Assembly: GCA_963699755.1 (NCBI GenBank)
Contig: CAVOVB010000007.1
Location: 256,001-320,000, forward strand
Direction of reading: 5' to 3'
Length of the DNA stretch: 64,000 nt
Source of the DNA: an uncultured delta proteobacterium
Lineage (GTDB): Bacteria; Myxococcota_A; Polyangia; Polyangiales; Houyiibacteriaceae
In this document: piece by piece, positions 7,516-17,163 of the stretch
How the letters are laid out: each line of letters starts with the position of its first letter
Position numbering within the stretch: position 1 is the first letter of the stretch
Made by a program: the position numbers and the translations under genes
Notes under the pieces: model-generated
Told to the model about the DNA's origin: nothing
Databases searched by the model: none
Seen by the model: only the letters and a program-made list of their open reading frames with translations

Positions 7516-8280
7516 TCAGCTCATGACCCGTGCGAAATCGAGCCCGCCGACGATCCCGGTCACTCCGCGATCATCCTCGATCAAAATGCGGCGAACGTTC
7601 ATTCCCAAGGCTTGCTCCGCGGCTCGGCCGAGGCCCATGGCGGCGGGCAAGATCAGAACGCGAACGTTCATCGCGTGTTCAACCGCGGTGCTCGGCGGCA
7701 GGCGGCGCGCTTCCAAAGCGCAGGCCTGGTCGAAAATGCCGACGGGGAAATCTCCTTCCACCACGACGAGGCCTTGCTTGTTGGAGACGTCGAGGCGGTC
7801 GACCGCCATCGCGATGGGGTCCTCGGCTCTGATCTTCACCACCGAGCCCGAGGCGATCTCGGAGATCGGCGTCTTGATTCGCTTCTCTCGAACCGCCCGC
7901 ATCAGATCGCGTGTGGAGACTACGCCCTTGGGCATGCCGTCCTTGGTCACGAAGACGCGGTGAACGTGGTTCTTCAGCATGAGCTTGGCAGCCTGTGCCA
8001 GTGGCGCTTCGGTCGAAACCTGAAGGGCCGGTGATTGCATGATCTCCTCGACGGGGCGGTCCGGAACGCGAAATGTGACGCCGTGGCTGAACACTGCGGC
8101 GTGAAGAATGTCCGTGCGCGACACGACGCCTTTGAGTACGCCTACCTCGTTGATGACGCCGAGGGCGGACACGCCCTGCTCCGTGAACATCTCGTTGGCT
8201 GCCACTAGGCTCTCCCCGATGCGAATTGTCTCGACGGGGCTGGTCATGTACTCGGCCACGGGCATTTCGAAGTTCGCCAT
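7516..8280 (-). CDS. CBS domain protein (two CBS pairs)
   Basis: Repeated CBS motifs (VAEYMTSPV...GVVSRTDI; VEEIMQSP...GVVSTRDL). ATG 8280 has an upstream GAGGTG. Confidence 0.85.
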   Translation of the reverse strand: MANFEMPVAEYMTSPVETIRIGESLVAANEMFTEQGVSALGVINEVGVLKGVVSRTDILHAAVFSHGVTFRVPDRPVEEIMQSPALQVSTEAPLAQAAKLMLKNHVHRVFVTKDGMPKGVVSTRDLMRAVREKRIKTPISEIASGSVVKIRAEDPIAMAVDRLDVSNKQGLVVVEGDFPVGIFDQACALEARRLPPSTAVEHAMNVRVLILPAAMGLGRAAEQALGMNVRRILIEDDRGVTGIVGGLDFARVMS

Positions 8281-8325
8281 CTCATTCACCTCTTCGTGTG
8301 ACTCGCTCGCTGCGCGGGCTTCCAT

Positions 8326-8802
8326 TCAAATCGCGACCTCCTCACGAAGGTGCTCGATGAGCTCGGCCTCCTTGCTGGTCGCCAGGTCTTTGTGAAGCGA
8401 GCCTACCACGAGCCGAGCGGTGGGTTCGTCGAGGGAGGAACGCAGCAATCCCAAGAACCTGGGAGGTGCTACCAAGACCAGTCGCTCGAACTGATTCTGC
8501 GTACGGGCGTGCTGGAGCTTGTCCGCTAGCGCTCTGGCAAAGTCGGCTACCACCCTATCATGCGGGCCTTCGCTCTGACTCATCGAAGCTCGGCGGGGAT
8601 CTCCACTGTTCTTGCGGAACGATCGTCCCGGACGATCAGAGTCGATGTCCCGGTCCCGAGCCCGCCCTTCGGGATGCTCGATCGACTCGACGAGCGTCAG
8701 CCCGGTGCCCGGGCCATGGTTTTCGAACACACGCGCGCCGGCCTCGTGAGCCACCAAAATCCATGTGCTGTTCATTTTCATCCCTCCGCGGCTGCAAGTC
8801 AC
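8326..8802 (-). CDS. Host attachment family protein (baeRF12-like, aeRF1-related fold)
   Basis: TWILVAHEAGARVF...DRPGRSF...FERLVLVAPPRFLGLLR...KDL signature. True start may be 8781 or 8775. Confidence 0.8.
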   Translation of the reverse strand: MTCSRGGMKMNSTWILVAHEAGARVFENHGPGTGLTLVESIEHPEGRARDRDIDSDRPGRSFRKNSGDPRRASMSQSEGPHDRVVADFARALADKLQHARTQNQFERLVLVAPPRFLGLLRSSLDEPTARLVVGSLHKDLATSKEAELIEHLREEVAI

Positions 8803-9134
8803 GAAGCCGGCAATGAAGGAAGCGGCCGAAGCTCGATGATCTGCTTTGTGCCGTCCCCGGTGATCACCTCGATGCTCGAAAGCTTCCCAGCCTCCTCTCG
8901 AACGTAGATCTCCTTTGGTTTGGAAACCCGATGCGAGATGTTCGAGGCGTCGACTTCAAAAACCTGTTCATTCGAGTCGTAACTGATACCAACCAGCGAG
9001 CTATTCTCGCTTTCGGGCTGCACGCCAATGCTCTCCCCCATAATGGATATCCCCACCCGCATGGACGGAAGGCTCTTTGCGACCTTGTCGAAGTACCGTT
9101 GCCATTCCGTGGGCTCTAGCTTTCGTGTTGTCAT
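8799..9134 (-). CDS. DUF5335-like protein
   Basis: MTTRKLEPTEWQRYFD...LVGISYD...HRVSKPKEIYV pattern. Strong GGAGGAG RBS before ATG 9134. Confidence 0.7.
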   Translation of the reverse strand: MTTRKLEPTEWQRYFDKVAKSLPSMRVGISIMGESIGVQPESENSSLVGISYDSNEQVFEVDASNISHRVSKPKEIYVREEAGKLSSIEVITGDGTKQIIELRPLPSLPAS

Positions 9135-9164
9135 CGTCTCCTCCAATAGCAGGGCTTCATAGGA

Positions 9165-9181
9165 AGCAAACCCCGTGCCCA
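9165..9181 (-). promoter_or_regulatory. Sigma-54 promoter for the DUF5335-host attachment-CBS operon
   Basis: Minus strand reads TGGGCACGGGGTTTGCT, i.e. GG-N10-GC with GGCAC and TTGCT. Confidence 0.75.
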
Positions 9182-9221
9182 ATCTCGGAGCCCTAGTTTG
9201 GCTGCTGATCTCGGCAATTGA

Positions 9222-9263
9222 CGCAAACGATGCGCCGATCGGGCGCAGCGCGATAGAATTGCG
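9222..9263. promoter_or_regulatory. Paired enhancer sites: CGCA-AACGA-TGCG (9222-9234) and degenerate CGAT-AGAAT-TGCG (9251-9263)
   Basis: Same CGCA-N5-TGCG palindrome as at 12335 and 17150. The two sites are 29 bp apart. Confidence 0.6.
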
Positions 9264-9336
9264 TGCCCAGAAGGCACGGCTCATGGGCGCCAGTCGCTCG
9301 ATCGGTATACTGAGGGCCTGGCAAGGCCGAAACGTG

Positions 9337-15331: not shown

Positions 15332-16509
15332 GCCCCGGTCGGAATCCAGAACGACGCGCGTGTGCCACCATGAGGGAGCGGGGTCAGCGTCGCAGCGCCG
15401 CCGTGTAGGTCGACGATTCGCTTGACGATCGCAAGGCCGAGACCGGTACCGGCGTCCTTCGTGGTGACGAAGGACTCAAAGGCCCGCCCAAGGACTTCGC
15501 TCGAGACTCCGGGACCATTGTCGATCACGGCGAACTCCCAGCGCTTGTCGCTCAAGATCCGGCTAGTGATCCGGATGGCCGGCTGAGGGCAGCTCGCCAC
15601 TGCTTCGACCGCGTTCGTAATGAGATTGTTGACGACTTGCTTGAGGCGGTCGCTCTCGACTACCAGGGTGCAGGAACCCGCGTCGATGTCCTCGATGAAC
15701 TCAATCCCTTGTGACTCGATCTCTGGGCGGCGCAGCTCCAGGACCTCGCCGAGTAGCGTGCTCGCGTCGCAAGGGACTGGCTCCATCCGCCGGGCCCGAG
15801 CCAAGTTCAAGAAATCGTCCAACAAGAGCGACAGTCGCCGGAGCTCATCCTGTACCACGTTGGTCCGCCGTTCGATCTTGCGACGGGTGGATGCGTCCTC
15901 GACGCGCGAGGCCGTCCGCCGGAGAACATCGAGTTGTAGCTTCGCGGCGTTGAGCGGGTTTCTCACCTCATGAGCCAAGCCGGCGGTAAGGCGCCCCATC
16001 ACCGCGAGCGACTCCGCTTCGGCAGTCTTCTTGAGCACGTAGGCCTCGCGATAGCTTTCGAGCATGATGGCCAGCTCGATATCGCAAATCTGGTCGATCA
16101 CCCGGTGGTCTTCGAAGACCACTGAGCCGTCGGGAGCCGACTCCCACACGGCACGATGAAGGCCGACACGAACTAGATTCATAGCGCCGAGCATGTATCG
16201 CTGTTCGAGCCCGACCTTGACGTGGACGCGGCCGATCCGGGCGCGCCCTTCGTAGTACGCGCTGTCGTAGGTGCCCTCGAACAGCCCCTGGAGCCAGCGC
16301 CTGAACGAGAGCTTGAGGCGCTCGACCTGGGCTTCGCTCGTCAGCACCGCGCGCGCGCCGGGATCTTCGAGGATCGCCTCGTAGAACCGAGCCACGATGC
16401 CCTCGTGATAGGGCTCCATCCGACTACGCATCGCCCGCAAGCGACGGGCGGACTCGGCATCGAACCTCACGTAGCTTCTGAGGGCCGCAAGCAGGCTGGC
16501 ATCGGCCAT
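15328..16509 (-). CDS. Protoglobin (globin-coupled) sensor histidine kinase, soluble
   Basis: Globin domain with ARFYEAI (B10 Tyr) and IGRVHVKVGLEQRYM (proximal His). H-box LAHEVRNPL, N-box NLITNA, DNGPG and GTGLGL. No transmembrane segment. Confidence 0.88.
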   Translation of the reverse strand: MADASLLAALRSYVRFDAESARRLRAMRSRMEPYHEGIVARFYEAILEDPGARAVLTSEAQVERLKLSFRRWLQGLFEGTYDSAYYEGRARIGRVHVKVGLEQRYMLGAMNLVRVGLHRAVWESAPDGSVVFEDHRVIDQICDIELAIMLESYREAYVLKKTAEAESLAVMGRLTAGLAHEVRNPLNAAKLQLDVLRRTASRVEDASTRRKIERRTNVVQDELRRLSLLLDDFLNLARARRMEPVPCDASTLLGEVLELRRPEIESQGIEFIEDIDAGSCTLVVESDRLKQVVNNLITNAVEAVASCPQPAIRITSRILSDKRWEFAVIDNGPGVSSEVLGRAFESFVTTKDAGTGLGLAIVKRIVDLHGGAATLTPLPHGGTRASFWIPTGA

Positions 16510-16515
16510 TAGGCC

Positions 16516-16544
16516 TGGCTAAGAAACTGCGCCCCTCCTGTCAA
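16516..16544 (-). promoter_or_regulatory. Sigma-70-type promoter of the globin kinase
   Basis: Minus strand reads TTGACA-N17-TAGCCA-N6-ATG. The spacer contains a GCGCA half-site. Confidence 0.6.
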
Positions 16545-16565
16545 GCGATTACGCCAATCGACCGG

Positions 16566-17051
16566 TCAAAAGGCCGACAGCGGGGGAAGCCGGACCATGC
16601 TCACTGGGCACGGCGCCTCCATGGCGAGCCTCTGGATGTCGAAGGGATTGACCTGATCAGCTCCGGTCATTGGCTGAATGCCAAGTAGGATCAGGTCGGC
16701 GCTCGAGCGCTGAGCGCTCTGCAAGACGTAGTCAGGCCAATGCCCGTCTTCGTAGAGCTCCGCTCTGCAGCGGACGCCGCGATCGGCACACCATTGCCGT
16801 TGGCGCTCGAGGAGCTGCCCTTCTTGGCGCAGCCTTGCCTCCACCCGGTCGCGCCAGCCATTGCCGTCCTCGCGCATCGACGGTGGAGGCTCAGTCCGTC
16901 GGCTCCCGCCACCTCCGTAGGTAGAAACCAAAACCACCTCGCCGTCGGTGGGACCAGCGATCAACGCAGCGAACCCCACCAGCTTGTAGCTCGCGGACGT
17001 CAGGTCCGTCACGGTAAGAATTGTAGATGCCATACGCGCCACCAGAGCCAT
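16566..17051 (-). CDS. Universal stress protein (single, divergent domain)
   Basis: TILTVTDLT...ADLILLG...RLAMEAPCPVSMV. Start is ATG 17051 (at predicted +1) or 17033. Confidence 0.75.
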   Translation of the reverse strand: MALVARMASTILTVTDLTSASYKLVGFAALIAGPTDGEVVLVSTYGGGGSRRTEPPPSMREDGNGWRDRVEARLRQEGQLLERQRQWCADRGVRCRAELYEDGHWPDYVLQSAQRSSADLILLGIQPMTGADQVNPFDIQRLAMEAPCPVSMVRLPPLSAF

Positions 17052-17061
17052 TCGAACCAGC

Positions 17062-17077
17062 AGCAAAGTGCATGCCA
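17062..17077 (-). promoter_or_regulatory. Sigma-54 promoter of the single-domain USP
   Basis: Minus strand reads TGGCATGCACTTTGCT, a near-consensus -24/-12 element. Confidence 0.8.
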
Positions 17078-17120
17078 TGTAAGAAACCCTGCAATACGGC
17101 GCACCGCTCGGTCGGCCGTC

Positions 17121-17163
17121 GGAAATCCTTGCGGGGAAAATCGAGAATACGCAGTTTTTGCGT
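17121..17163. promoter_or_regulatory. Paired enhancer sites: degenerate GGAA-ATCCT-TGCG (17121) and perfect ACGCA-GTTTT-TGCGT (17149-17163)
   Basis: Same palindrome core as at 9222 and 12335, again with 29-bp spacing. Confidence 0.7.

Follow-up and report, generated by a model that had tools for sequence, protein, structure and literature searches.

The question raised by this locus is what an uncultured myxobacterium of the order Polyangiales controls with a globin-based sensor, and through which regulatory circuit. The ten genes at issue occupy positions 7516-17163 of the window, by which we mean the whole stretch of 64,000 nucleotides that was analysed (C7:256001-320000), and they include a protoglobin histidine kinase directly beside an activator of the NtrC family (Table 1). 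An earlier note, made from the sequence alone, had described them as a self-contained dormancy island driven by sigma-54. We consider it likely that they represent a shortened version of the Nmp system, by which Myxococcota respond to oxygen, along with some of the genes it controls, and we base this on domain content, on promoters and enhancer dyads conserved across loci, on synteny, and on two domain phylogenies, all of them observed in silico. Pfam and NCBIfam did confirm that every gene family named in the note is present, and placed all ten genes in those families. Likewise borne out is the pairing of a soluble protoglobin kinase with an adjacent NtrC-type activator, an arrangement which is conserved. 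The kinase carries the proximal His96, the distal Tyr43 and the H-box His180, and its domains leave no space for a membrane segment; in the regulator, GAFTGA is found at residue 239 along with the Walker A sequence GETGTGKE and a C-terminal Fis-type helix-turn-helix, and rpoN was found in the assembly.

In published reports, the NmpRSTU system of Myxococcus xanthus is composed of the protoglobin kinase NmpU, the hybrid kinase NmpS, the phosphosink NmpT, and the NtrC-like activator NmpR (PMC11841059, PMC6211767). According to the model given there, NmpU, in which the haem ligand His96 is required, works in the presence of O2 and silences NmpS by phosphorylating its receiver, and NmpS phosphorylates NmpR once O2 falls (PMC11841059). 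NmpR is described as binding GCGCA-N5-TGCGC, with the N5 left unspecified and no more than two deviations tolerated per site. Two such sites lie upstream of its sigma-54 promoters, usually with 14-15 bp between them, which makes 29-30 bp from one centre to the other; NmpR depends on the sigma-54 site and regulates its own gene. Its regulon comprises a CBS gene, a universal stress protein (USP) gene, a P-type ATPase gene together with those of the cbb3 oxidase, hemN along with hemerythrin, nmpU-T-S and pilR, and the hypoxia induction of mxan_4236 is NmpR-dependent (PMC11841059). Regulator, site and spacing in the window are those of this published design, so that the wiring which the earlier note had proposed as new is not. 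The dyad pairs found here, at -116/-86, -105/-75 and -104/-74, are conserved and match in silico the two-site arrangement of NmpR, and the regulator itself is 70% identical to the one located beside NmpU and NmpS in the outgroup locus L086. In our usage, labels such as NmpU-like refer to the outgroup Myxococcota loci with which sequences were compared, the named M. xanthus genes being outside the direct comparison.

What distinguishes the window is the kinase. We retrieved 79 orthologous loci, among which L001-L041 have a full or near-full orthologue of this protein (62-83% identity). Gene order in the cluster is kept in about 40 loci, but not across Myxococcota: close kinase orthologues were found in one genus only (18 out of 18 sampled genomes, plus the assembly of the window), and in the other Myxococcota, with 401 genomes surveyed, the best full-length matches are 33-40% identical. 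The globin of the window shares 36-45% identity with NmpU-like globins, and the globin tree places the genus next to those of L086 and L087, as their sister group (87/86), with His96 present in 20/20 sequences and Tyr43 in 19/20. The kinase core, however, is closer to NmpS-like cores (37-45% identity) than to NmpU-like ones (29-35%; 7 + 7 proteins). A maximum-likelihood tree built from 27 kinase cores sets the NmpU-like clade apart (100/100) and joins the genus, as sister group, to the NmpS-like cores from L086 and L087 (99/97). A tree in which the cores of the genus and the NmpU-like cores form a clade was rejected by the approximately unbiased (AU) test (p = 0.025). Judged by both sets of sequences, the kinase is a chimera, made of an NmpU-type globin and an NmpS-type DHp-CA core; the relationship to NmpU suggested at first holds for the globin, but not for the core to which it is attached.

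The organization of the outgroup loci agrees with this picture. In L086, which belongs to a different genus of the same family, a tandem USP gene is followed by NmpU, NmpS and a convergent NmpR, and the order in the window (USP1, kinase, convergent regulator) is that of L086 with the two kinases merged, USP1 being a conserved neighbour located upstream of the kinase gene on the same strand. The NmpS-like protein of L086 reads REC-PAS_4-HisKA-HATPase in Pfam, and the kinase of the window has a globin in place of the receiver and PAS domains. An NmpU-like globin kinase, an NmpS-like receiver-PAS-kinase and an NmpR-like gene are found together in seven of the ten outgroup loci read, five of which also have a receiver-only protein between both kinases. 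When the NmpS of L086 was used as query, no receiver-PAS-kinase NmpS was recovered from the genus (21/21 genomes); in 19 of these genomes the best match was the globin kinase of about 400 aa, over query residues 246-487 only, and one further genome has a copy of this kinase broken at a contig end. The receiver domain (L086 NmpS residues 1-110) is in no listed match from the genus genomes. NmpT and NmpS genes are absent from the locus, in line with the two-protein module originally described, and none were found in the genus with the queries used. A four-protein relay thus appears to have collapsed into two proteins in one genus of Polyangiales. In the ancestor of this genus, the globin of NmpU would have been joined to the DHp-CA core of NmpS, the kinase of NmpR, with loss of the NmpU kinase core and of the NmpS receiver and PAS domains, and as a result of this fusion and these losses the globin would now control NmpR phosphorylation directly. 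The genomes of the genus are small for Polyangiales (3.1-5.4 Mb, with completeness estimates of 90-100%).

The second line of evidence is the conservation of regulatory sites. Motif counts in the window were not significant, as GG-N10-GC occurs 30 times against 23.6 expected, which is not above chance, and CGCA-N5-TGCG occurs seven times against 3.4 expected, a count that 5 of 100 shuffles reached, with three of the seven copies lying in gaps upstream of promoters (9222, 12335 and 17150). Because of this, orthologous loci were fetched, and the case rests on conservation across them, a promoter being scored when a GG-N10-GC element matched at least 8 of 11 consensus positions. All four -24/-12 promoters that had been proposed, which resemble TGGCAC-N5-TTGCW and lie directly 5' of USP1, the tandem USP, the WS/DGAT acyltransferase (wax ester/triacylglycerol synthase) and DUF5335, proved to be conserved in the orthologous loci, which come from about 40 related species (37/37, 27/29, 28/29 and 14/14, respectively). 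Their geometry is also kept: the -12 C lies 14 nt from the start codon of the tandem USP gene (14-16 nt in 27/27 loci), 17 nt from the ATG of WS/DGAT, whose promoter is found at -28 to -34 from the start codon in 24/29 loci, and 32 nt from the ATG of DUF5335. In several orthologues the regulator gene has an element of its own, at -29, and in 12/34 loci the distance between the -12 C of such an element and the start codon is 15-18 nt; in the window this gene starts 14 nt past the sigma-54-driven WS/DGAT gene. In many orthologues CBS1 has the promoter TGGCAC-N5-ATGCT, with an element near the start in 18/26 loci. The kinase gene, on the other hand, has a sigma-70-type promoter whose pattern is present in 31/37 loci, and a -10 box of the sigma-70 type (TATA[CG]T) was found at most 60 nt upstream of the kinase/ATPase gene in 16/19.

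The enhancer which these promoters had been thought to share is conserved for three units. Dyads are kept upstream of USP1 in 33/37 loci (28 of them at -105 to -107), upstream of WS/DGAT in 25/28, where they cluster at -116 and -86, and upstream of DUF5335 in 14/14 (at -73 to -75 in 12), and each dyad-bearing unit has a second, weaker dyad 29-30 bp from the first. The tandem USP is the exception, as described below. None of the dyads was detected by an inverted-repeat finder at its settings. We also observed a repeated promoter cassette elsewhere in the assembly, composed of TGGCACGCCTGATGCA-like sigma-54 elements, dyads at about -103/-75 and then a conserved CCGCACTTAGG-like leader, with copies at C2:844841, 845438 and 846677 (three within 2 kb), C10:18195, C1:1926336 and C3:3213.

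Table 1. Positions of genes, promoters and enhancers of the predicted system (window numbering, unless a contig is named)
Feature	Position	Strand	Basis or detail
Glycogen operon, adjoining	3-7469	+	Pfam, NCBIfam
Debranching enzyme, 3' part (gene begins upstream of window)	3-512	+	
GT4/GT5 glycosyltransferase	368-2005	+	
GH57	2014-3216	+	
GlgA-type synthase/alpha-glucan phosphorylase fusion, 1418 aa	3213-7469	+	Ends 46 nt from the studied stretch
Sigma-54 promoter of glycogen operon, with two dyads (-124/-94)	C7:254452		About 1.55 kb upstream of window base 1
CBS-pair protein, 269 aa	7516-8325	-	Pfam CBS, E 1e-30; final gene of DUF5335-baeRF-CBS operon
baeRF_family12/Host_attach protein, release-factor-like fold family	8326-8802	-	Pfam, E 2e-42 and 2e-35
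DUF5335 protein, 111 aa	8799-9134	-	Pfam, E 1e-26; orthologue alignment
Sigma-54 promoter, DUF5335 operon	9165-9180	-	GGGCACGGGGTTTGCT
DUF5335 enhancer	9222-9263	.	Dyad CGCAAACGATGCG 9222-9234 (about -74), degenerate dyad 9251-9263 (about -104); 29 bp centre to centre
-10 box TATACT, kinase/ATPase gene	9306-9311		
Kinase/ATPase	9337-10884	+	Pfam, weak APH and AAA_33
Tandem USP, 298 aa	10886-11782	-	Pfam Usp, two stretches, E 2e-52
Sigma-54 promoter, tandem USP	11795-11810	-	TGGCATGGTGCTTGCT
CBS1, CBS-pair protein, 143 aa	11851-12282	-	Pfam
Decayed CBS1 promoter	12297-12312		GG-N11-GC
Enhancer common to divergent WS/DGAT and CBS1	12335-12377	.	CGCATATTTTGCG 12335-12347 (-116), degenerate TGCAGAATATTCG 12365-12377 (-86); 30 bp centre to centre
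Sigma-54 promoter, WS/DGAT and regulator	12431-12446	+	AGGCTCGCATCTTGCT, weak -24 half
WS/DGAT acyltransferase	12462-13889	+	Pfam; TIGR02946; HHCMVDG motif
NmpR-type NtrC-family activator	13904-15331	+	Pfam, motifs: REC, sigma-54 AAA+ (GAFTGA), HTH_8
Protoglobin-HisKA-HATPase kinase, 393 aa	15328-16509	-	Pfam Protoglobin, E 2e-30
Sigma-70-type promoter, kinase	16516-16544	-	TTGACA-N17-TAGCCA, 6 nt, ATG
USP1, single-domain USP	16566-17051	-	Weak Pfam match, Usp E 4e-6, 27.9 bits vs cut-off 24
Sigma-54 promoter, USP1	17062-17077	-	TGGCATGCACTTTGCT; read-through into kinase gene possible
USP1 enhancer	17121-17162	.	CGCAGTTTTTGCG 17150-17162 (-105), degenerate dyad 17121-17133 (about -75); 29 bp centre to centre

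The stretch is not self-contained, and the same design extends beyond it. By the criterion used above, the adjoining glycogen operon has a GG-N10-GC element in all 17 usable loci of the genus and a dyad as well in 16, with the dyads paired at about -124/-94 in 13 of those 16. Its 1418-aa open reading frame (ORF) combines a glycogen synthase domain of the eukaryote/archaeal type (PF05693), DUF3417 and an alpha-glucan phosphorylase, so that domains for glycogen synthesis and breakdown reside in one protein at the end of a sigma-54-driven operon. Further upstream, a unit encoding hemerythrin, a tandem USP, cytochrome c' and an acetyl-CoA hydrolase has a promoter and near-consensus dyads at -93/-64, an architecture seen in 19/20 loci. 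On these grounds, both operons are probably under the same regulator. A cbb3 oxidase cluster is placed beyond the hemerythrin unit, but the cbb3 oxidase genes and the P-type ATPase genes, which lie upstream of the window and have two good dyads, showed no recognisable sigma-54 promoter and are for this reason not counted as targets. A weight-matrix scan gave two candidates on other contigs, an Hsp20 gene with a promoter in 7/7 loci and a dyad in 5/7, and an S30AE-CSD fusion gene with both a promoter and a perfect dyad in 5/7. These unlinked genes, the second of which would encode a hibernation factor, may belong to the regulon; as they were found in few genomes of the genus (7/21 and 6/21, respectively, with the queries used) and lie on other contigs of a mixed bin, we treat them as leads and not as parts of the system. 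The candidate places are L081 (G000:C10:244000-246000) and L082 (G000:C4:36900-38200), and in three genomes of the genus the S30AE-CSD and Hsp20 genes are 0.3 kb (G406:C41), 2.1 kb (G414:C2) and 4.5 kb (G402:C77) apart. An ORF at C8:146001 (197-248 aa) with a similar promoter was set aside, as it belongs to no Pfam family. The assignment of any of these targets to this regulator is a prediction from sequence.

Several points weigh against the reading of the locus as a shortened Nmp system with part of its regulon, and they concern the history of the kinase, the control of the genes, and the sign of the response. With regard to history, only ten outgroup loci were sampled, and in three of them (L090, L091 and L094) a globin kinase lies directly beside an NmpR-like gene with neither NmpS nor NmpT between, so that the two-protein form is not unique to the genus; these may be further independent two-protein versions. 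In the tree, the kinase cores of these three loci are likewise on the NmpS side. The direction of change depends on placing the root on the NmpU branch, and the group submitted to the AU test was chosen after the tree was seen. The assembly, moreover, is a mixed bin: C7:85000-404000 is colinear over about 320 kb with C1:1911000-1595000, at about 82% nucleotide identity, and the entire cluster occurs again on C1 (C1:1726000-1742000). With contamination estimated at 9%, this suggests that two related populations have ended up in one bin, and not that the region was duplicated.

With regard to control, the promoter of CBS1 has decayed in the window, its spacing having slipped to GG-N11-GC, and the kinase/ATPase gene, although inside the cluster, has no conserved GG-N10-GC near its start across loci. 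The tandem USP has a dyad upstream in only 5 of 27 loci and none within about 150 bp in the other 22; the DNA upstream of this gene is the coding region of CBS1, and its activation is left unexplained. The CGCA-N5-TGCG core is also found upstream of many other sigma-54-like promoters in the assembly, where 51 promoter/dyad combinations were counted, and the next-best NtrC-type paralogue of the regulator is 54% identical to it. Since the core is widespread and such paralogues exist, a dyad alone is no proof that this regulator binds there, and the position-weight scan of the assembly was too unspecific to delimit a regulon. It could be, then, that several enhancer-binding proteins share a GCA-N5-TGC core and that the adjacent regulator controls its own operon or a subset of the units only. 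Besides the abundance of the core at sigma-54-like promoters, such a mosaic would account for the high scores obtained outside the cluster and for the difference between the A/T-rich N5 spacers of the cluster and the G/C-rich ones of the glycogen operon. The consensus given for M. xanthus NmpR, however, has a free N5 and allows up to two deviations per site (PMC11841059), the pairing of sites at 29-30 bp is common to all dyad-bearing units, and across the genome the best-scoring combinations of dyad and promoter belong to the cluster and to its second copy, so that we find this explanation quite unlikely.

If a single NmpR-type activator is in charge, as we favour, it would bind pairs of GCGCA-N5-TGCGC sites about 30 bp apart, located 65-125 bp upstream of sigma-54 promoters, and open these promoters. 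It would thereby drive three or four units, namely USP1 (with read-through into the kinase gene), WS/DGAT together with its own gene, DUF5335-baeRF-CBS and, probably, the tandem USP, and its transcription from the WS/DGAT promoter would amount to positive feedback. The adjoining glycogen and hemerythrin/USP operons would probably be driven as well. Basal amounts of the kinase would come from a sigma-70-type promoter of its own, and its protoglobin, with haem bound, would detect a gas that is most probably O2.

Whether oxygen turns the regulon on or off depends on how globin and core are coupled. That the kinase binds haem and passes phosphate to the regulator is inferred, as are its ligand and the direction of the response, and it is a further point against our proposal that all functional claims for this organism derive from its sequence. 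Based on the cargo and on the M. xanthus precedent, the regulon would be switched on when oxygen falls, and if hypoxia induction has been retained, the fused globin must inhibit the kinase when O2 is bound. Should the activation by O2 of NmpU and of its homologue AfGcHK from Anaeromyxobacter sp. Fw109-5 (PMC11841059) survive in the fusion, on the contrary, the regulon would be on in air and not in hypoxia. Reserves would then be laid down while respiration is possible and the system shut off in anoxia, an outcome that we judge unlikely. In its favour, autophosphorylation of AfGcHK is described as enhanced by O2 binding (PMC8697598), NmpU is modelled as active in O2 with haem required (PMC11841059), and the globin of the window is of the NmpU type with the same His96. 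Yet the homologous regulon of M. xanthus is reported to be induced by hypoxia (PMC11841059), hemerythrin and possibly Hsp20 and the hibernation factor suit oxygen shortage or stasis, and a globin that sits on a different kinase core need not have conserved its coupling.

A related question is whether O2 is the ligand at all. Globin sensors with haem generally also bind NO and CO, and sediment habitats have active nitrogen cycling, so a sensor of NO, CO or redox state, with the regulon serving as a nitrosative or redox stress response, can be envisaged. The closest characterised relatives are, however, treated as O2 sensors, and no NO-detoxifying genes were seen in the units examined, which makes this alternative very unlikely in our opinion. 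Returning to oxygen as the signal, we tentatively propose a more complete scenario, in which the fusion made a direct globin-kinase/activator pair, the fused globin inhibits the kinase on O2, opposite to NmpU, and the pair governs a stasis programme that resembles that of DosR by convergence, in a sediment myxobacterium with a small genome. Such a programme would comprise neutral-lipid and glycogen storage, USPs, CBS energy sensors, hemerythrin and a release-factor-like protein, as well as an alpha-crystallin and a ribosome hibernation factor in some species, with much of it expressed as leaderless mRNA from sigma-54 promoters. Taken jointly, these claims seem possible to us, though somewhat doubtful.

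The suggestion of leaderless transcripts comes from the short distances between the -12 C, or the -10 box, and the start codon, for the tandem USP, the kinase and other genes, and transcription is predicted to start 0-5 nt before these start codons. A start codon 14-17 nt past the -12 C is seen in all 27 tandem USP loci and in most WS/DGAT, CBS1 and regulator genes. Across the assembly, an ATG lies 12-17 nt from the -12 C in 13 of 55 strong sigma-54-like sites, a count made without a shuffle control on those sites that have an ATG-initiated ORF of at least 80 aa within 120 nt. One promoter-like match, at 20324-20339 on the plus strand, was dropped because it falls inside a minus-strand ORF (20016-20432) of 138 aa; this ORF opens with a basic repeat rich in Lys, Ala and Thr that resembles histone-H1-like DNA-binding tails.

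As for the remaining genes of the stretch, the WS/DGAT protein scores 399 bits against TIGR02946 (cut-off 310) and has the catalytic domain, the C-terminal domain and the HHxxxDG motif (HHCMVDG at residue 145). The true start of DUF5335 is the ATG at 9134, preceded by a GGAGGAG Shine-Dalgarno sequence, and the start of the 269-aa CBS-pair gene directly adjoins the baeRF stop, as read from the sequence. An AlphaFold model of the DUF5335 protein (pLDDT 81) has an alpha-plus-beta-sheet fold for which Foldseek returned no PDB match at E <= 0.001, and the Atlas gave DUF5335 clusters only. Weak Foldseek rows (E about 5e-3, TM about 0.5) included the haem-binding ChuX, HutX and PhuS, plus LolA, and such model-based similarities are a hint at a small-ligand carrier, from which we claim no function. 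The G+C content of the region (0.60-0.63) is level with that of the flanks, both flanks are syntenic across the genus, and no mobility gene is found among the Pfam matches, so that the region lacks the marks of a mobile genomic island (atypical composition, patchy presence, mobility genes). In sediment metagenomes, four runs from two studies contain at least half of the sampled sequence words from the stretch. The contigs of one metatranscriptome run contain short pieces of the stretch, among them a 202-nt piece identical to 13748-13949, which spans the junction between WS/DGAT and the regulator; RNA contigs were not counted as evidence, given possible DNA carry-over and the fact that a contig is no proof of a transcript, and the stretches they leave uncovered carry no meaning.

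If our reading is correct, this genus and Myxococcus would provide a natural experiment in which one type of sensor domain is linked to one type of output regulator either directly or by an inverting relay, and a comparison of the two would ask what determines, at the globin-DHp junction, the sign with which a haem-globin switch acts. The predicted Nmp regulon would be widened from oxygen use to carbon storage, as wax ester or triacylglycerol and as glycogen, and perhaps to ribosome hibernation, which suggests how uncultured sediment myxobacteria survive oxygen shortage. The conserved promoter geometry, in addition, makes a prediction of its own, that of leaderless sigma-54 transcripts. What is new here is the fused, two-protein Nmp variant with its enlarged, storage-oriented predicted regulon, the Nmp design itself having already been published.

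Compared with NmpRSTU, the system in the window has in common a protoglobin sensor with the haem-ligand His at the same position, an NtrC-like activator using sigma-54, pairs of GCGCA-N5-TGCGC sites 29-30 bp apart centre to centre, autoregulation, which is predicted here, and CBS, USP and hemerythrin genes among the (predicted) targets. It differs in having two proteins instead of four, with NmpT and a separate NmpS not found, in the joining of the globin to an NmpS-type core, and in a cargo that adds WS/DGAT, DUF5335-baeRF-CBS, the tandem USP and the glycogen operon. With AfGcHK the kinase shares a soluble protoglobin-HisKA-HATPase architecture of similar size, with proximal His and distal Tyr, but its core belongs to the other (NmpS) clade and its gene adjoins that of an NtrC-type regulator; our literature search found no paper pairing a globin-coupled histidine kinase with sigma-54. 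FixL-FixJ and other haem-PAS systems are similar in that a haem kinase controls low-oxygen genes, and a cbb3 cluster is located near the window; an Nmp-type promoter was not found for the cbb3 genes here, and those systems differ in having a PAS sensor fold, a regulator of another family, and no sigma-54.

The comparison with DosR, from which the idea of a dormancy cargo came, is of a different kind. The DosR regulon of Mycobacterium tuberculosis includes USPs, a CBS-pair protein, a WS/DGAT, a kinase-like plus P-loop protein and one that resembles release factors. The mycobacterial USPs are also mentioned in the work on NmpR (PMC11841059). In both cases a haem kinase controls, or is predicted to control, a USP-rich regulon with CBS-pair, WS/DGAT, kinase-like plus P-loop and release-factor-like members, to which Hsp20 and a hibernation factor may also belong in the window. 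The families are the same, but for the two proteins compared the likeness seems to be at the family level only and not one of orthologues: the best solved relative of the CBS protein is AcuB (E 2e-21), with Rv2626c at only 1e-8, and for the tandem USP, Rv2623 is among the top four PDB matches, which include 3cis and 2jax. The literature search returned nothing linking Rv2629 to baeRF, a link proposed in the earlier note. The sensors and regulators differ as well, as DosS and DosT are GAF-haem sensors and DosR is a NarL/LuxR-type regulator acting at sigma-70-type promoters, whereas the window has a protoglobin sensor and an NtrC-type regulator, and no pair of the DosR kind. The two systems would have converged on a similar dormancy regulon, each with regulators of its own.

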